DNA of 64,000 bases from Cellvibrionales bacterium (GTDB lineage Bacteria > Pseudomonadota > Gammaproteobacteria > Pseudomonadales > GM7GCV1): NCBI GenBank assembly GCA_014323765.1, contig JACONM010000034.1, forward strand, positions 25,076 through 89,075, given 5' to 3'. The translations under genes and the position numbers were made by a program. The notes under the pieces were generated by a model. The model saw nothing but the letters and a program-made list of their open reading frames with translations, did not search any database and was not told where the DNA came from. This document shows, piece after piece, positions 5,947 through 60,099 of this stretch (positions are counted from its first letter, which is position 1; each line of letters opens with the position of its first letter).

Positions 5947-7008
5947 TTACAACGTATTCTGAGCCGCTCTAGCGCGGTAGATATCCGTTAGAACGGATAA
6001 TTCATCAAACACGGTCCACTCTTCCACAATTTTGCCATCGATAAGGCGGTAATGGCTCTCCCCCAAAATATACAGGGTTTGTCCGCTGGGTTTTCCATAG
6101 CGGGCACTGCCCGTGTGAACGCCGGAAATCGACCACCGCACCGCCAGATCGACTCCCCGATCCCGGTTTGGCTGCTGGCAAACATAATCGGCGGAAAACC
6201 GCAGTTCCGATAAAGTGCCCAACATCTGCATGTAAAAACCGATTATCGCCGCATGGCCATGCAATTCACAGCCCGGGGTGCCGTGCAACACGGCATCCGG
6301 CGCATAGCTTTGATAGACATCGCCCACCATGCGGGCATTCCAAATATTATGCAAACTGGACCGAATAAATGACTCGGGGTCATCCCCCGCCACCTGCCGC
6401 TGAAAATCCACCTGCTGTTGCAAGCGTTGCCGTTGTTCATCCCGCCATGCAGTTAGACGCTCGGAAACTGGTTTCAGAGCCCAGTGTTGCGCCACTTGTT
6501 GAGGATCCTTGCCGAGTTGCTGCGCTAAGGAATAATTGTCCCGCACCAGCCATTCTTCGATAATACGGTTATTTTTAATAACGCAGTGGGCGATCACTAA
6601 TATGGTGGCTTCTTTGTGGGCGGCAACGCCGTATTCGGAGTCACTAGTGTTGGTCATATGGCTGCGAATAAGGTGGGAGGTATGAAACCCGGTTTGCTCA
6701 TCGCCCGCCCAAATAAGATTGACCGCTTCAAGAGTTCGATCGGGAAACGATGCCAAGGTGGTCAGGGTATTTTGGGTGACCTCTGCAGCACCGATGGTCA
6801 CCCCCGCTAGGGTATAGACCGGGCAGTCTGGGGAATAATAATCCAGACAAAGACCCACCTGTTTGCCTTCCCAAATGCGCCGTGTGACGCGCAAAATATA
6901 ATCCGTAATATCGGTAAATTCCGGGTCAAATCCACGCATGGCGGGCACCGCCGCGCTGGCCTTTTCAGCGGCGGGAGCACTATCGTGATGATGTTGCAGG
7001 TGAGTCAT
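5947..7008 (-). CDS. tandem SnoaL-like / NTF2-fold protein (ester-cyclase-like)
   Basis: The two halves each end in a similar NRIIEEW / GKIVEEW strand motif typical of SnoaL-type folds. Confidence 0.6.
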   Translation of the reverse strand: MTHLQHHHDSAPAAEKASAAVPAMRGFDPEFTDITDYILRVTRRIWEGKQVGLCLDYYSPDCPVYTLAGVTIGAAEVTQNTLTTLASFPDRTLEAVNLIWAGDEQTGFHTSHLIRSHMTNTSDSEYGVAAHKEATILVIAHCVIKNNRIIEEWLVRDNYSLAQQLGKDPQQVAQHWALKPVSERLTAWRDEQRQRLQQQVDFQRQVAGDDPESFIRSSLHNIWNARMVGDVYQSYAPDAVLHGTPGCELHGHAAIIGFYMQMLGTLSELRFSADYVCQQPNRDRGVDLAVRWSISGVHTGSARYGKPSGQTLYILGESHYRLIDGKIVEEWTVFDELSVLTDIYRARAAQNTL

Positions 7009-46130: not shown

Positions 46131-47744
46131 GTGAACCGTCTATATTACGGCGACAACCTAACCATCATGCAGGAAATGGAATCCGCCAGCGTCGATCTCA
46201 TTTACCTCGACCCACCGTTCAATTCCAACCGTGACTACCACGCCATCTACAAAAGCGAGACCGGTCGCCCCATAAACGCCCAAGTGGTCGCCTTCACCGA
46301 CCAATGGGAATACACGGCTCGTACCGAAGCCGCCAGTAAAGAACTGCCGCATGCAATGGCCGCGGTCGGTATTGATGGTACTTGGTGGCTCGGCTTAGCC
46401 AGTATGCTCCGCGCCAGCGACCCGCCATTGCTGGCTTACCTCACCTATATGACCGAGCGGCTAATAATAATGCGCCGCCTGCTCAAACCCACCGGCAGCC
46501 TTTATTTACACTGCGACGACGAAGCTGTCCATTACCTAAAAATTGTGCTGGACGGAATTTTCGGACGCACCAATTTCCGCAATCAAATTGCATGGCAACG
46601 CATAAAAGGGGCCGGCAAACGCAGCCAACACGGAATCAAAAATTACGGACGTTCATCGGATATCCTCCTTTTTTACAGTGCCGGCAAAACCTACACCTTT
46701 AATGCGCAAGCAATTAGCCTACTGTACGCTGACATTGAAAAATCTTTTCCGTTCACGGATAAAAAAGGCCGTTACAAACGAAGAAGTCCATTCCGCCCCC
46801 CGGGTTTAGGTCCGCGCCCAAATCTTTGTTACGAATACAAAGGGGTTTTCCCCCCGCACCCTTCTGGCTGGACAGTAAAAGAAAGTAAATTGGCCGCGCT
46901 AGATAAGGCGGGGGAGTTAGAATGGATCGGGCAAAAACCTTGGCGCAAACAGCGACCATCCAGCGGCATAGTCCCGAACAACATCTGGACGGACATCAAC
47001 CCCCCATCAAAAAGCGAGCGCCTAGGCTACCCCACCCAAAAGCCCCTAAAACTCCTCGACCGCATAATAAAAGCCAGCAGCAACGAAGGCGATCTAGTCC
47101 TAGACCCCTTTTGCGGCTGCGCAACCACCATCGAGGCCGCACACCGATTGAATCGCCGATAGATCGGCATCGATATCGCCTACTACGCCATCAAATGCGT
47201 CTCCCGCGACCGCCTAGCCGACCAACTCAACCTGATTCCGGATCAGCACTTCGCCATCGAAGGGGTGCCCAATTCCTTCGAGAGCGCACTCGACCTATGG
47301 ACGCGAGATCCTTACCACTTCCAACAATGGGCAGTAAGCCTTGTCGAAGGAATCGTCCTCGCCCGCCAAAGCGGTGATAAAGGCATAGACGGCTGGATAT
47401 TCTTCGACCTGCCCGATCAAAAAGACTGCGCCGGCATGGTGCTAGAAGTCAAGGGCGGCCAAAACCCGACTGCCGAAAATGTCCGCAGCCTAGGCGGCGT
47501 ACTCGACCGCGAACCGTTCGCCGAAATGGCCGGCCTAATTCTGCTACACCCACCGGGAACTCAAAAACGCCGCAACTTCGAGACTGAAATGGCCGCCGCC
47601 GGCCACCTCGAAGTCAAAGGCCGAAAACACCCCCGCATGCAAATCCTCACCATCGAAGAAATACTCGCCGGCAAACAATTCGACTTACCCGCCCCACCCC
47701 GCACCAGCCGCGATCCCAATCGCCAGTTGACGGGCATCCTTTAA
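46131..47744 (+). pseudogene. paralogous MTase/Mrr-like nuclease fusion interrupted by one in-frame amber codon (TAG 47160-47162)
   Basis: ORFs 46131-47162 and 47265-47744 are in the same frame. RLNRR*IGIDIA aligns with RLKRNWIGIDIA in the paralogue (TGG to TAG). The central region is divergent. Confidence 0.8.
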
Positions 47745-55283: not shown

Positions 55284-56192
55284 ATGGCCAGCGAAGGCAC
55301 CTATTACGTCCCCGAACAAAGCCGCTTCCCGATAATCGTCGGCCTAGCACTGGGCCTGTCCGCCTACGGCGCGGGCCAAATGATGATAGACGGCAACGCC
55401 ACCGCGTTAATTCTCGGCATGGCGGTATTTTGGGTCACCCTAGCCTGCTGGTGGAACACCGTCATCAGCGAACACATGCAGGGGCTGACCGATACACAGC
55501 TAAAGCGTTCCTACGTCTGGGGCATCGGCTGGTTTATTTTCTCCGAGGTAATGTTTTTCGCCGCCTTTTTCGGTGCGCTTTTTTATGTACGCACTGTCGC
55601 GCTACCCACCCTCGGCGGCTGGGGCATGGGCGCAGAAAACCCCGAAGCCTGGGGCGGTTTTGAAGCCGAGTGGCCGCTAATGACCACCCCGGATCAAAGC
55701 CTCAACGGCGAGGAGGCCGCCATGCTCGGCCCGAAAAAAGAATTCGGGGCCTTCCCCGGCTGGGCGCAGCTGTATCACTGGTTGCCGCTTTGGGGCACGA
55801 TTATTTTAATGAGCTCCAGCTGGACAGTGCATCTGGCGCACCACCACATTAAACACGGCGACCGCCGCGCCCTATTTAATTTCTGGCTAGGGCTAACCGT
55901 GCTACTCGGTGCCACTTTCCTCGGTTTGCAGGCGTATGAATACTACGAGGCATACGCACATTACGGCCTAACCCTGCAATCCGGCATCTACGGCACCACC
56001 TTCTTCATGCTAACCGGCTTCCACGGCTTCCATGTCGCCATGGGCACGATCATGCTCGCCATCCAACTCGCCCGCTCCCTAAAAGGCCACTTCCGCCAAG
56101 ACGACCACTTCGGCTTCGAAATGGCCTCATGGTATTGGCACTTCGTCGATGTAGTCTGGGTAATGCTATTCTTCTTCGTCTATATTCTCTAG
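55284..56192 (+). CDS. ctaE: cytochrome c oxidase subunit III
   Basis: It shows FFMLTGFHGFHVAMGT and ASWYWHFVDVVW. Confidence 0.95.
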   Translation: MASEGTYYVPEQSRFPIIVGLALGLSAYGAGQMMIDGNATALILGMAVFWVTLACWWNTVISEHMQGLTDTQLKRSYVWGIGWFIFSEVMFFAAFFGALFYVRTVALPTLGGWGMGAENPEAWGGFEAEWPLMTTPDQSLNGEEAAMLGPKKEFGAFPGWAQLYHWLPLWGTIILMSSSWTVHLAHHHIKHGDRRALFNFWLGLTVLLGATFLGLQAYEYYEAYAHYGLTLQSGIYGTTFFMLTGFHGFHVAMGTIMLAIQLARSLKGHFRQDDHFGFEMASWYWHFVDVVWVMLFFFVYIL

Positions 56193-56222
56193 GCCAAAGC
56201 CGGTAAAACAAGCAAAGCCGAT

Positions 56223-56630
56223 ATGCTCCGCATATTTCTCATCGCCTGCGCCGCAAAGAAAAAACCGACCGCCTGCCCGGCAGACAGACTGTACGACAGC
56301 CCGCTATTCCAAAAAAGCCTTGCCTATGCCCGCCGCAAAGCAGCAGACAAAATTTACATTCTATCCGCAAAACATGGACTATTAAAAACGCAAGCAAAGA
56401 TCGCGCCCTATAATCTGACACTCAATCAAATGCCGCTCCACGCCCGCCGCAAATGGGCCAACAAGGTCGCCATCCAGCTGCAAAATGAAACCAATTTGCA
56501 GGAAGACCTATTCACATTTCTAGCCGGCCAAAAATATCGTGAAAACCTAGAGCCGCTCATGGCGCATGTCGAGACACCGCTCGCCGGAATGCCCATAGGC
56601 AAGCAGCTACAATGGCTAGGGAGCAATTAA
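56223..56630 (+). CDS. DUF6884-like small protein
   Basis: The pattern MLRIFLIACAAKKK...LYDSPLF...IYILSAKHGLL....IAPYNLTL...FLAGQKYRE...ETPLAGMPIGKQLQWL matches my memory of DUF6884. It is AT-richer than the cox genes. Confidence 0.6.
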   Translation: MLRIFLIACAAKKKPTACPADRLYDSPLFQKSLAYARRKAADKIYILSAKHGLLKTQAKIAPYNLTLNQMPLHARRKWANKVAIQLQNETNLQEDLFTFLAGQKYRENLEPLMAHVETPLAGMPIGKQLQWLGSN

Positions 56631-56631
56631 C

Positions 56632-57267
56632 ATGTCGGAAGCATGCCAAATCCTGCACCGGGTTTTTAATGCTTTGCCGCGCTTGGATGCCAATTACAGC
56701 GAACAAACTATTCCACGTAACGGAATCTATATCCTGTTCGAGAAAGGTGAAACAGCGCACGGCACCGACCGCATTGTGCGCATTGGCACTCATACCGGCC
56801 AAGACAACCTGCGACAGCGATTAAAAGAACATTTATTCACCCCGAATAAAGACCGCAGCATATTCCGCAAACATATCGGGCGGTGTTTTTTGAATAAAAA
56901 TAACGATCCTTTTTTAGCGCGCTGGGATTTAGATCTAACCAATCGAGAAAACCGCCTGCGATACAAAAACCAAATTAACCAGAAAAAACTCATCGAGACC
57001 GAAAACGCTGTAACCAGCTATATGCAAGAAAAATTCTCCTTTGTCGTATTTGCAGAACCAATAAAGTCGAAACGCTGCGACTTAGAAACACAGCTTATCG
57101 CCACGGTCGCCCAGTGCGAAGACTGCCACCCCTCCCCCAGTTGGCTCGGCAATCACCATCCGAATTCAGCAATCAAAAAATCCGGCCTTTGGAATGTACA
57201 AGGGCGAACCAAAACCCCGCTCACCACTTCTCAAGCCAAAGATTTAGCCGCAACACTCACCGATTAA
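56632..57267 (+). CDS. GIY-YIG nuclease superfamily protein
   Basis: It starts 1 nt after the preceding stop. It shows NGIYILFEKGE...IVRIGTHTG.DNLRQRLKEH, then RKHIG and a downstream conserved E (LETQLI). Confidence 0.7.
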   Translation: MSEACQILHRVFNALPRLDANYSEQTIPRNGIYILFEKGETAHGTDRIVRIGTHTGQDNLRQRLKEHLFTPNKDRSIFRKHIGRCFLNKNNDPFLARWDLDLTNRENRLRYKNQINQKKLIETENAVTSYMQEKFSFVVFAEPIKSKRCDLETQLIATVAQCEDCHPSPSWLGNHHPNSAIKKSGLWNVQGRTKTPLTTSQAKDLAATLTD

Positions 57268-57330
57268 CCTAAATAACCCCGCACCATGCTATCCTCTCCA
57301 CCACAAAACAGACTTCTTTGCATGCCCAAT

Positions 57331-57427
57331 ATGCTCAATCGGACACAATTCCCTCATGAACCACCCGCTCCGGGTGCAGGCCACGGTCCCAAGGGGCTCG
57401 GCTCCCAGCTGCCCGCTGCCGATGCCG
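57331..57427. repeat. direct repeat copy 1 (duplicate of the 3' tail of the DUF2909-like gene)
   Basis: It aligns with 59011-59108 over about 97 nt, with about 10 mismatches and a 1-nt indel (hand alignment). Confidence 0.85.
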
Positions 57428-57482
57428 CGAGCCTGCCACCACCCGCACCCCTAACCGCCCTACCGGGGAACGAGTTGCACTG

Positions 57483-59000
57483 ATGGGTGAATTTCTTGTT
57501 GGCATCGTTGCGTTAGTAGTGTGTGTAATACAGTTACGCTACTTCTTCGTTGCCGACCGCAAAACCCACTACGCCAAAAATCCCCTCGTATTCGCCGCTA
57601 AATCCACCCGCCGCGCCGCCAAAACCTGCAAACGCAAACACCTCAAAGCCGCCGTCAAAGAAACCCGCCGCGCCCTCAAAGCCGCCACCAAACACTACGA
57701 ACAGTACTTCTACTTCGAAAGCAGACAACCGCCCCACCTGCTTCAAAAAAAAGCTGGCGAAGCCGTTTGGGAAGCCGAAGAAGCCGCCACAAAAGCCGCC
57801 TACTCCAGCTGGCGCACTGAAGCCGACGATGAAGACGATGAAGAAGCCGAAACCGAAGCACGACGCAAAGCCAAAACCCAAGCCAAAGCACTACGCAAAG
57901 CCATAGACTACATGGACTATGCCGAAACCCGCGCCGCCGAAGTCGCCAGAATCATCACCGCCAAAAAACACCTAGCCGCTCACAAAGCCGAAACCAGAGC
58001 CACAGCGCGACTCGAAACCAAAGACCGCGCCAAAGACGAAGAAGCTGACCGTGATGCCAAAGATGAAGGAGATGCCAAAGTCCGTCGAGCCGTCGTAACC
58101 ACCTACGCCGTCGCCGCCGCTAAAGCGGCCAACGCTGCCAATTTAGTCGCCGCCGACGCCGGAGACACGGCCCACGATGCCAAATGGGATGCCATCGCCC
58201 GCGCTCACGATGCCGCCAAAGCCATCGCAACCGCCGAAAACAACGTTGATGCCAACGAAGTCGCCGCCGCCGTCAAAGATGTCGAAGCCCGCGCCGCCGC
58301 CCAAGCCGAAGTCACCAAAGCCACCCTAACCGCTCTAGCCACTGCCGCAGATGACCTCAATGCTGCCGATGGTGCCGCCAGCAAAGCCGGCTACAAAGTC
58401 CGCAGAGCCATGGATGAAGTCCACAAAGCCCGCAGAGCCGCCAACAAAGCCGACCCCGACGACCGCGATGCTAAAGCGCGATTCGAAGCCGCTAACGAAG
58501 CCCTCAACAAAATCCGCGCCGAAACCAGGGCCGACCGTGAAGCCGCCGACAAAGCCAAAGCTAAAGCCGCTGCCGTCTACCAAGCCGCCTACGAAGCTGC
58601 AGACACTCGCAGAGCCACCTGCGCAGCGCAACTACCCGCCGCCGCTGCCCTATTCGCCTCCTACAGAACTCAAATCAAAGCCAACACCGCCTACGACAAA
58701 GCCGAAGCCGCCTACAACAAAGCCAAGGCCGCCCACAAAGCCAATCCCGACGACCCCGATGCCAAAGCGCGACTCAAAGATGCCAAGGCGCGACTCGAAG
58801 CCAAAGACAGCACCAAAGACGAAGCCGAATACGCCGTCAGAGCCGCCGAAGCTCCCCTATCCGTCGAAACCTCCCCTGCGTCGGATGATATCTTTCCACC
58901 CCGCCGCTCTTCCCTAACCGAGATAGCTGCCGCCGCTCGCGCCGAAGCCGAAGCCGAAGCTGCCTTATCCGCCGAAATAACTAAAATTCGAGAAAAATAG
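57483..59000 (+). CDS. membrane-anchored Ala/Lys/Asp/Glu-rich low-complexity protein (TolA-domain-II-like composition)
   Basis: It is an uninterrupted 505-codon frame with an N-terminal TM helix (FLVGIVALVVCVIQL), followed by an A/K/D/E-rich sequence with internal repeats (NPDDPDAKARL / ADPDDRDAKARF). Confidence 0.6.
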   Translation: MGEFLVGIVALVVCVIQLRYFFVADRKTHYAKNPLVFAAKSTRRAAKTCKRKHLKAAVKETRRALKAATKHYEQYFYFESRQPPHLLQKKAGEAVWEAEEAATKAAYSSWRTEADDEDDEEAETEARRKAKTQAKALRKAIDYMDYAETRAAEVARIITAKKHLAAHKAETRATARLETKDRAKDEEADRDAKDEGDAKVRRAVVTTYAVAAAKAANAANLVAADAGDTAHDAKWDAIARAHDAAKAIATAENNVDANEVAAAVKDVEARAAAQAEVTKATLTALATAADDLNAADGAASKAGYKVRRAMDEVHKARRAANKADPDDRDAKARFEAANEALNKIRAETRADREAADKAKAKAAAVYQAAYEAADTRRATCAAQLPAAAALFASYRTQIKANTAYDKAEAAYNKAKAAHKANPDDPDAKARLKDAKARLEAKDSTKDEAEYAVRAAEAPLSVETSPASDDIFPPRRSSLTEIAAAARAEAEAEAALSAEITKIREK

Positions 59001-59010
59001 GCTTCCTTAC

Positions 59011-59108
59011 ATGCTCAATCCGACGCAATCCCCTCATGAACCACCCGCTCCGGGTGCAACCCACGGTCCCAAGGGGCTTGGCTGCTAAACTGCCCGCTGC
59101 CGATGCCG
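59011..59108. repeat. direct repeat copy 2 (overlaps the 3' end of the DUF2909-like gene)
   Basis: It is the partner of 57331-57427. Confidence 0.85.
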
Positions 59109-59275
59109 TAGGCGATGGTGCCGATCAGTGCGGTGGCTAGGCTGATGCGGATGCCCAGTGCCCACAGCAGGCGGCGGCGGGCGTTGCCTTTATCCTGCAC
59201 CAGAAAATAAAAGCCGCTACACAGGCTGGCGAGCATGGCCAACAGCAGGATGAGGACGATGGACTTTAACAGCAT
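59015..59275 (-). CDS. twin-transmembrane small protein (DUF2909-like), cox-cluster associated
   Basis: MLLKSIVLILLLAMLASL...LWALGIRISLATALIGTIAYGIG forms two TM helices. I chose the ATG at 59275. The long C-terminal tail is encoded by the repeat. Confidence 0.6.
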   Translation of the reverse strand: MLLKSIVLILLLAMLASLCSGFYFLVQDKGNARRRLLWALGIRISLATALIGTIAYGIGSGQFSSQAPWDRGLHPERVVHEGIASD

Positions 59276-59295
59276 GGGGCGACTCTCGATGGAGG

Positions 59296-60099
59296 ATGAA
59301 CGGGCGATGGACGATGAACAAGCGGATACCCCATTTAACCACATTGCCGCAGGCAGCGTTTGTGTGTGAAGCCGTCCGCTTCGCCTGGCAACCACACTGG
59401 CGTTTTATTGCCCTGCTCGCCGCCATGTTGCCGCTGACATTCGCCGCCGGTTTCTGGCAGCTAGACCGCGCCGAACAAAAGCGCGACATGATTGCCGCCC
59501 AAGCCCATGCCATACGACTGCCCGCCATCCCGCTCGATTCCCTCGCCGCACCGGAAAATTACCGCCGCGTTTGGGTCGAAGGGCGGTGGACGGACGCACT
59601 CTTTTTATTGGACAACCGCACTCGCGCCGGGCGGGTGGGGTACGAAGTGTTGGGAATCCTGCGCGCCGCTAATTTGCCACCAGTGCTGGTCAATCGCGGC
59701 TGGGTCGCCGCCGGTGCCGACCGCGCCGCCCTGCCCACTATTCAAATGCCCGCCGGTCCACAGCGTATCGCCGGGCAACTTTATCGCTCGCCCAGCAAGC
59801 CCCTAGTGCTGGCACCGCAAACCTGGGCCGACAGCTGGCCGGAACGCCTGCAAGCGATCGACTTCGCGCTGCTGGAAGCGCGGCTCGGCGAGCGGCTTTA
59901 TCCCGCCGTGTTACGCATGGAGCCAACCGCGCCGGGGGCCTATCAGGCCACCTGGCCGCTGCCCCGCGCCCGCCCCGCGATGCACACCGGCTACGCGGTG
60001 CAATGGTTTGCCATTGGCGCGACCCTGCTGGTGCTGGCGGTGTTTGCCAATTCCAACCTGTGGGAATGGGCGCAGCACCGCCGCCGCAACCCCAAATAG
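59296..60099 (+). CDS. SURF1 family cytochrome oxidase biogenesis protein
   Basis: It shows GFWQLDRAEQK, VLVNRGWV, YAVQWF and a terminal TM. An alternative ATG lies at 59314. Confidence 0.85.
   Translation: MNGRWTMNKRIPHLTTLPQAAFVCEAVRFAWQPHWRFIALLAAMLPLTFAAGFWQLDRAEQKRDMIAAQAHAIRLPAIPLDSLAAPENYRRVWVEGRWTDALFLLDNRTRAGRVGYEVLGILRAANLPPVLVNRGWVAAGADRAALPTIQMPAGPQRIAGQLYRSPSKPLVLAPQTWADSWPERLQAIDFALLEARLGERLYPAVLRMEPTAPGAYQATWPLPRARPAMHTGYAVQWFAIGATLLVLAVFANSNLWEWAQHRRRNPK

Follow-up and report, generated by a model that had tools for sequence, protein, structure and literature searches.

We analyzed a 64,000-nucleotide window from a Cellvibrionales bacterium (GenBank assembly GCA_014323765.1, contig JACONM010000034.1; part of a 164-kb metagenome scaffold) and identified a two-gene cassette within its cytochrome oxidase (cox) operon. 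The first gene, ORF1 (56223..56630, + strand), encodes a 135-aa DUF6884 protein, and the second, ORF2 (56632..57267, + strand), encodes a 211-aa divergent GIY-YIG protein. A first-pass annotation, made from the sequence alone, had placed the stop of ORF1 at 56630 and the start of ORF2 at 56632, and direct reading of the sequence agreed: the junction is AAT TAA C ATG, with the TAA at 56628-56630, the ATG at 56632-56634 and a gap of 1 nt. A Shine-Dalgarno-like GGGAG motif at 56619-56623 lies 8 nt ahead of the ORF2 ATG, and the whole coupling junction (GGGAG, ORF1 TAA, 1 nt, ORF2 ATG) occupies 56619..56634 of the + strand. Both genes are AT-richer than the flanking cox genes, as had also been noticed. 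The GC content was 0.51 for ORF1 and 0.47 for ORF2 versus 0.55-0.65 for cox genes, and GC3 was 0.57 and 0.51 versus 0.69-0.80 in coxB, coxA, ctaG, coxC, SURF1 and cox15; along the cassette GC dips to 0.445-0.52, with flanks of 0.53-0.66. A promoter/terminator scan of 55900-59500 gave counts not above those of shuffled sequences, and no + strand terminator was detected in it from coxC to ORF1. The cassette starts 30 nt past the coxC stop and is probably expressed by read-through from the cox operon, as part of a transcript with the cox genes.

Both proteins matched PADLOC models over their full length. ORF1 was recognized by PDC-M57A (E 2e-50, residues 1-133 on model positions 1-133 of 138) and ORF2 by PDC-M57B (E 7.4e-87, residues 1-208 on model positions 1-208 of 211), and in the window the two genes lie side by side on one strand, in the order of the catalogued system. 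Judged by these matches, they are an intact copy of PDC-M57, a PADLOC candidate phage-defence system. Given also the full-length DUF6884 match of ORF1 described below and the 3470 database relatives of ORF2, both can be regarded as bona fide genes and not chance ORFs. The PDC series comprises 145 phage defence candidates found by guilt-by-embedding, the criterion being that a cassette had turned up one or more times within a BREX, DISARM or type I restriction-modification locus (Payne et al., bioRxiv 10.1101/2024.01.29.577857). The pairing, for which the first-pass annotation knew of no described function, had therefore already been catalogued; the lack of a described function holds, as a literature search for PDC-M57, PF26468 and GIY_YIG_3 found no functional study, domain analysis, mechanism or test of the pair, and the papers validating PDC systems tested other candidates.

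ORF1 was assigned to DUF6884 with confidence. It matched the Pfam profile (PF21818) at E 3.7e-45 and 153.8 bits (cut-off 30) over residues 4-132, spanning profile positions 1-133 of 135, in agreement with the initial assignment. It contains both motifs that the Pfam curators named for this family (PMC11701544), CxxxK (C9-A-A-K-K13) and LSAxxG (L47-S-A-K-H-G52), and C9, K13, L47, S48, A49 and G52 were invariant in an alignment of 48 ORF1 homologs. The AF2 model of the protein had a pLDDT of 95.6. Two segments highlighted earlier, ILSAKHGLL (46-54) and IAPYNLTL (60-67), are indeed present, and their proposed likeness to the DNA-binding YaaA/DUF328 family proved real but weak. The PF03883 (YaaA/DUF328) score was 20.5 bits, under the cut-off of 29.6 (E 3.7e-4, residues 36-111 only), NCBIfam YaaA models gave E 0.01-0.04, a profile of the ORF1 family matched the sequence of the YaaA structure 5CAJ at E 0.24 over the very segment quoted, and hhalign against Escherichia coli YaaA returned a probability of 39% over 74 columns. 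In a Foldseek search of the PDB with the ORF1 model, 5CAJ was not among the top 50 matches; the best E-value was 0.011 and the top matches were generic alpha/beta folds. An LS(A/G)xYG...PY segment is common to ORF1 and YaaA (5CAJ), but ORF1 is half the size and its N-terminal CxxxK motif falls outside the YaaA-aligned segment. Membership in the YaaA family was rejected on the PF03883 score, and ORF1 is at most a distant superfamily relative; a relationship between DUF6884 and YaaA, with a common fold and a basic cleft, has already been published by the Pfam curators (PMC11701544).

A second relationship was found with DpdC, a protein that has been described as DUF328-like (PMC5699537) and that converts preQ0 already in DNA to ADG in vitro (PMC10164549). 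PADLOC DpdC models matched ORF1 at E 3e-6, aligning residues 11-69 with DpdC positions 46-103 of 312, which points to distant homology; neither a full-length DpdC match nor location in a dpdABC cluster was found for ORF1. The two proteins differ in size (135 versus about 310 aa), the match is confined to residues 11-69, and the partner of ORF1 is a putative nuclease. ORF1, which has a conserved Cys-Lys pocket, is predicted to be a YaaA/DpdC superfamily protein that flips out bases, either as a reader or as an enzyme.

ORF2, which had been proposed to be a GIY-YIG nuclease, appears to be a relative of these enzymes, but a very divergent one. Its family label, PF26468 (GIY_YIG_3), derives from the precomputed annotation of the sequence collection, and its scores against classical Pfam models were below threshold (PF20815, 16.3 bits with a cut-off of 22.4; PF01541, 13.8 bits with a cut-off of 22.6). 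Among 47 ORF2 homologs, the top three families all belonged to the GIY-YIG clan (DUF123, 28; GIY-YIG, 14; GIY_YIG_2, 10), all of them sub-threshold. The AF2 model (pLDDT 94.3) has a beta-beta-alpha...beta-alpha layout, that is, hairpin-helix...strand-helix order. Foldseek searches of this model against PDB and BFVD gave nothing significant and only weak GIY-YIG-themed matches: the UvrC GIY-YIG domain 1yd6 was the sole thematically coherent PDB match (TM 0.52-0.57, target-normalised; E 3.8-4.7; rmsd about 6 Å), and viral GIY-YIG/SegD-like proteins were matched in BFVD at E 0.3-4. A profile of ORF2 homologs detected nothing among PDB sequences up to E 10, hhalign detected no relation between the ORF2 profile and the N-terminus of E. 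coli UvrC, and no PHROG matched ORF2.

The motifs GIYILF (31-36), RIGTHTG (50-56) and RQRLKEH (61-67) reported for ORF2 were all located. Alignment showed that G31 and Y33 are invariant, with G31-I-Y33 starting a predicted strand (31-42), and that the second motif reads R50-I-G52 (RIG) instead of YIG; R50 is at least 90% conserved and the family has no Tyr there. R63 and H67 are also invariant and lie within predicted helix 60-69 (helix 1). In the GIY-YIG nuclease I-TevI, R27 and H31 represent an Arg and a His/Tyr spaced four residues apart on helix 1, and by this pattern, without a significant alignment, R63 and H67 may be their equivalents. Thus, of the expected catalytic residues, the GIY motif and the helix-1 pair were present and the second-motif Tyr was absent. 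Candidates for the metal-binding Glu are E152 (at least 90% conserved, though short of invariant), on the helix at 145-160 that follows the strand at 135-141, and E124, which is invariant and precedes this strand. A further family feature is the invariant NKDRSIFRK motif (72-80), carried by a helical insert of ~65 residues, and C5, H9, C162 and C165 could possibly bind zinc. Nuclease activity of ORF2 is plausible on these features.

We further examined the occurrence of the cassette in cellular genomes, using one genome per species (185,579 species) and counting gene arrangements in the best 80 loci. Relatives of ORF2 were found in 451 species genomes (about 0.24%), and PDC-M57 occurs in hundreds of species of both Bacteria and Archaea, among them members of DPANN and of the candidate phyla radiation (CPR). 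A DUF6884 gene was located directly upstream on the same strand in 67 of the 80 loci, in both Bacteria and Archaea; 63 of these pairs were split and 4 were fused in one ORF. Five more loci had a longer, divergent CxxxK-containing DUF6884/DpdC-like partner, three ended at a contig edge and five were without a partner. Among 62 unfused pairs from other genomes, 58 overlapped (49 by 4 or 8 nt and 9 by other lengths), three were spaced by 1-2 nt and one by 89 nt. Fused proteins, known from genome loci, the protein database and viral contigs, always had the order DUF6884 followed by GIY-YIG. Even a Deinococcus relative of the nuclease with only 27% identity has DUF6884 ahead of it, and the cassette proteins are ~50% identical between Bacteria and Archaea. 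The conserved adjacency and the fusions strongly support the functional coupling suggested by the first-pass annotation, and the pairing is general and beyond chance. Two further domain architectures were observed in the nuclease family: a 457-aa protein that joins three domains, DUF6884-GIY_YIG_3-DUF7662 (L098:5563-6933, with five more viral contigs like it), and a 367-aa protein (P0044) in which GIY_YIG_3 is followed by a C-terminal nucleoside diphosphate kinase domain (PF00334).

Because of the fusions and the conserved gene order, we favor one two-part enzyme over a toxin with its inhibitor, and the two proteins probably form a single DNA-directed enzyme. A toxin-antitoxin or abortive infection module, in which a GIY-YIG toxin would be restrained by the upstream DUF6884 protein until infection, is suggested by the small upstream gene translationally coupled to the nuclease gene, the mobile and sporadic distribution, and occasional PIN and HEPN-like neighbours. 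However, stable in-frame fusions in several lineages would be unusual for an antitoxin and its toxin, the strictly conserved, enzyme-like DUF6884 pocket is shared with phage proteins that stand alone and lack a nuclease partner, and DUF6884 proteins of another, DpdC-like clade can also partner the same nuclease, which fits a sensor better than a dedicated inhibitor. We consider such a module improbable, and the toxin-immunity option raised by the first-pass annotation is disfavored by the fusions in particular.

The surroundings of the cassette were compared with related cox operons. A metagenome scan supplied 80 related operons (CoxC 43-80% identical), all of which had the order ctaG-coxC-(100-200 bp spacer)-DUF2909(-)-SURF1, and ORF1, ORF2 and ORF505, a further gene of the window, were found in none of them; an empty-site search by exact CoxC look-up had returned the source contig alone. 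The homology of these operons to the window ends at 56191 and restarts at about 59049, and the missing segment of ~2.8 kb (56193..59010, no strand assigned) consists of a 30-nt spacer, the cassette as its left-hand part, an orphan 3' end of DUF2909 (57331-57427) and ORF505 (57483-59000). GC3 is 0.51-0.59 within the insertion and 0.69-0.80 outside it. Given this homology break and the absence from 80 operons, the cassette belongs to a lineage-specific insertion. Its closest relative (67% identity) occupies a different locus, between fabF-like and pnp genes, and the nucleotide homology between the two is limited to the cassette (56232-57197). Flanks varied across 79 loci, with no family recurring in more than 2 of 145 neighbours. 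The cassette is a self-contained unit that moves horizontally.

GIY-YIG is a classic homing-endonuclease fold, and mobility of this kind could also be that of a selfish cassette, in which a free-standing homing endonuclease, assisted by a DNA-binding partner, would spread by cutting empty sites. The insertion is precise, falls in a spacer between genes of a conserved operon and has no recombinase close by, which would agree with this, as would homology to the nearest relative that stops at the cassette borders. Against it, each genome examined has a different insertion site, the context is that of neither an intron nor an intein, none of the 80 related cox operons is occupied, so that the site gives no sign of homing, and the nuclease was absent from all 50,697 phage genomes searched and occurred in only 11 of 2.9 million viral contigs. 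Because of the heterogeneous flanks and the near-absence of the nuclease from phages and viral contigs, a homing element, the third option initially offered, is improbable, and among those options defence is the best supported.

Unlike the nuclease, ORF1 has many viral relatives, 213 of which were detected in IMG/VR. We analyzed the best 80 of these (36-48% identical to ORF1) and looked for pathway genes within 10 kb. Seven that were scanned matched PDC-M57A at E 1e-37 to 1e-51, as strongly as ORF1 itself. At least one gene of 7-deazaguanine DNA modification was present in 35 of the 80 viral loci and at least two in 31, and in 31 of the 35 the nearest such gene was no more than 86 nt from the DUF6884 gene. 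The pathway genes identified were QueC (PF06508), FolE (PF01227), a QueE-like radical SAM protein and the Vut_1/YhhQ preQ0 transporter family; DpdA was identified in viral loci by PHROGs (phrog_887, 'queuine tRNA-ribosyltransferase'), and sequence searches of the PDB for phage DpdA-like neighbours gave nothing. For example, locus L251 has the order QueD-QueE-FolE-QueC-DUF6884-DpdA, with DUF6884 at L251:4004-4432. Another example is the cultured Fusobacterium phage phiFN37 (L337), in which genes for a ParB-like protein and a queuine tRNA-ribosyltransferase are followed by DUF6884 (6001-6435), labelled 'hypothetical' in the depositor annotation, and a queuosine precursor transporter. This gene order mirrors bacterial dpdB/dpdA/dpdC, and members of the ORF1 subfamily in phages occupy a DpdC-like position beside ParB-like and DpdA genes.

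Residues C9, K13, Y24, F29, LSA47-49, Y63, T66, W78 and Y105 were identical in the cellular and phage groups, and 13 of the conserved pocket positions showed identity or near-identity across four groups of DUF6884 proteins (cellular GIY-paired, viral GIY-paired, viral deazaguanine-associated and other viral). We found no description of the DUF6884 gene in the phage deazaguanine literature searched. The stand-alone DUF6884 protein (viral loci L184-L336) is a conserved, apparently unannotated member of phage deazaguanine operons and may be the phage counterpart of DpdC. Neither the link to DpdC nor that to phage 7-deazaguanine operons was part of the first-pass annotation, and within the literature that could be checked the deazaguanine link is a new one. 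A different architecture was observed in five other phage proteins of ~500 aa (L186, L189, L194, L195:3509-5005 and L212:3536-5071), in which a central DUF6884 domain is combined with a C-terminal XkdF-like serine protease domain (PF14550).

We propose that PDC-M57 is a horizontally acquired, self-contained two-protein DNA endonuclease. ORF1 would flip a non-canonical base out of the duplex and bind or chemically engage a modified base foreign to the host, and ORF2 would then cut the DNA nearby. The pair would be a split modification-dependent (type IV-like) restriction enzyme, for which no methyltransferase would be needed because host DNA is without the mark. We give this defence-type, modification-dependent nuclease somewhat less than an even chance. 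Based on the phage gene context and the DpdC relationship, the likeliest mark would be a preQ0-type 7-deazaguanine base in invading phage DNA, an identification that is tentative. In its most specific and equally conjectural form, the proposal is a type IV system with a miniature-DpdC reader, in which flipping of 7-cyano-7-deazaguanine or a close derivative would license the GIY-YIG cut, and the phage DUF6884 protein would be the DpdC of phages. The nitrile of preQ0 could perhaps be captured on the invariant Cys9, as QueF does.

The same relationship to DpdC allows a restriction-modification-like pair, in which DUF6884 would alter a host base for self-protection and the nuclease would cut unaltered DNA. 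DpdC modifies DNA as part of a restriction-modification system (PMC10164549), and the conserved Cys-Lys pocket suggests catalysis. However, DpdC needs preQ0 pre-inserted by DpdA/DpdB, and no DpdA, Que or YhhQ gene was found within 10 kb of the 80 cellular cassettes, nor are dpdA, dpdB or que genes present near the cassette of the window. In addition, a 135-aa protein without a cofactor domain would presumably be restricted to hydrolytic chemistry on a canonical base, which would be mutagenic. Of the explanations considered here, this one is the most improbable.

Several observations weigh against a modification-dependent defence nuclease. PDC-M57 is a catalogue candidate whose defence role would follow from embedding, and the copy in the window differs in that its neighbours are genes of the cytochrome oxidase operon and not those of a defence system or defence island. 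In Methanosarcina, the cassette is found within a type I restriction-modification system (order hsdS-M57A-M57B-hsdR), the kind of embedding by which PDC systems were defined and a point in favor of defence, but a check with Methanosarcina Hsd proteins showed that the type I-embedded cases in our sample come from one lineage. When the 145 flanking ORFs of 79 loci were compared with PADLOC and Pfam, as a check of enrichment near defence genes, a few sporadic restriction-modification genes were found among the immediate neighbours, a thin defence-island signal. No recurrent methyltransferase or other recurrent partner was found either, which is in favor of an enzyme that works without a modification partner. 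The nuclease role of ORF2 depends on sub-significant GIY-YIG fold and sequence matches, with the second Tyr replaced by Arg, and is at this level plausible. As regards the mark, 35 of the 80 viral loci contain neither a deazaguanine gene nor the nuclease, and in a neighbour-joining tree the phage deazaguanine DUF6884 proteins mostly form sister clusters to the GIY-paired genes, a GIY-paired gene being the nearest neighbour for 7 of 30; because they fall mostly outside the GIY-paired clade, the ligand could differ. On one high-GC viral or prophage contig (L237:3334-5209), the gene just upstream of one for a fused DUF6884-GIY protein (420 aa) has a weak QueC match (E 9e-9); it may be a QueC-like defence gene, or it may be a counter-example to deazaguanine targeting. 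Finally, ~50% identity across domains of life is more than is usual for arms-race genes and would suit a repair enzyme.

The main, serious rival is a lesion-directed repair nuclease, an accessory endonuclease in which DUF6884 would read a lesion (an abasic site, a ribonucleotide, or an oxidised or alkylated base) and GIY-YIG would incise as do the N-terminal domains of UvrC/Cho. Besides the very high conservation across domains of life, several findings are consistent with it: the Bacillus subtilis DUF6884 member YfjM was enriched on abasic-site and ribonucleotide baits (PMC10220248), an AlphaFold3 model reported by Pfam has YfjM flipping a base (PMC11701544), ORF1 has a confirmed weak homology to YaaA, a peroxide-stress protein that binds DNA, ORF2 finds its best thematic fold match in the UvrC GIY-YIG domain, and most loci are 'solo', outside defence islands. 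A repair function fits poorly with a patchy, horizontally transferred cassette present in only ~0.24% of species genomes, with the lack of recurrent linkage to repair genes, or with the embedding in the Methanosarcina type I system, and the occurrence of the same DUF6884 subfamily in phage base-modification operons points to modified, not damaged, bases as the ligand. On balance a repair nuclease is unlikely, although it deserves more weight than the other alternatives; if it were correct, it would represent a new, mobile excision pathway.

The modification-dependent nuclease proposed here would resemble known type IV-like enzymes that join a repair- or modification-derived base reader to a nuclease of a standard superfamily, such as END nucleases (iEndoIII and PLD; PMC12191111) and winged-helix-GIY-YIG fusions (PMC11037411). 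Such modular sensor-nuclease enzymes have one or two chains and a PD-DExK, HNH, PLD or GIY-YIG nuclease (PMC12191111, PMC11037411); like them, the cassette is split or fused, methyltransferase-free and horizontally mobile. It differs in its sensor, a DUF6884 'cantaloupe' fold with an apparently catalytic Cys-Lys pocket and not an inactivated enzyme, and in its nuclease, which by its sequence features would belong to a distinct GIY-YIG family with RIG for YIG and the 65-residue helical insert. Host glycosylases that attack deazaguanine-modified phages are also known (Dag; bioRxiv 10.1101/2025.10.29.685425), and the proposed logic, in which the protective deazaguanine of the phage is read as a non-self mark, is similar. 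In contrast, Dag enzymes are single HhH/UDG-type glycosylases with unrelated folds, and the target of PDC-M57 is suggested by gene context.

Phages replace guanine with 7-deazaguanine derivatives to evade restriction enzymes, and host countermeasures are only now emerging. The cassette of the window is a new copy of a catalogued candidate; as a modification-dependent restriction system, it would have a sensor fold not previously given such a role, and no description of DUF6884 as an immune sensor was found in the literature searched. If the proposal is true, a new fold would join the few domains that read modified bases, the YaaA/DpdC 'cantaloupe' fold would be seen for the first time as an immune sensor, and both the widespread DUF6884 family and a PADLOC candidate would acquire a function. 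The stand-alone phage DUF6884 protein would then represent an unrecognised phage step in deazaguanine DNA modification, and an enzyme cutting only deazaguanine DNA would be a tool for mapping such modifications. The deazaguanine link turns 'function unknown' into a directly testable prediction.

Further features were noted in the remainder of the insertion and at some neighbouring genes. ORF505 (57483-59000, + strand) encodes a 505-aa Ala/Lys-rich protein, in which a hydrophobic segment at the N-terminus gives way to degenerate repeats (28% Ala, together with Lys, Glu, Arg and Asp); its AT skew reaches 0.59, its GC3 is 0.59, and no Pfam, PADLOC or PHROG match was found for it. It was rejected as a third component of the system, as it is not beside the cassette at other M57 loci. 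ORF505 is flanked by a direct repeat of ~97 nt, ~92% identical between its copies at 57331-57427 and 59011-59108. The right copy is the 3' end of an intact DUF2909 gene (59015-59275, minus strand), and the left copy, an orphan fragment, codes for the same C-terminus, ...APWDRGLHPERVVHEGI(V/A)SD. This repeat pair suggests that the same coxC/DUF2909 hot spot has received a second insertion, separate from the first.

A 343-aa N6/N4 DNA methyltransferase gene (PF01555) is located at about 46131-47162 (+ strand), ~9 kb upstream of the cassette and not adjacent to it. At the locus of the closest relative, a 221-aa ORF (L084:1284-1949, minus strand) is convergent with the nuclease gene, the 3' end of which it overlaps; this ORF contains an RNQLLH sequence (RxxxxH, HEPN-like motif) and has no Pfam match. 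In Paracoccus sp. Z118, a large serine recombinase (L009:7193-9424, minus strand) is encoded directly upstream of the cassette and is among the few mobile-element genes adjoining M57 loci.

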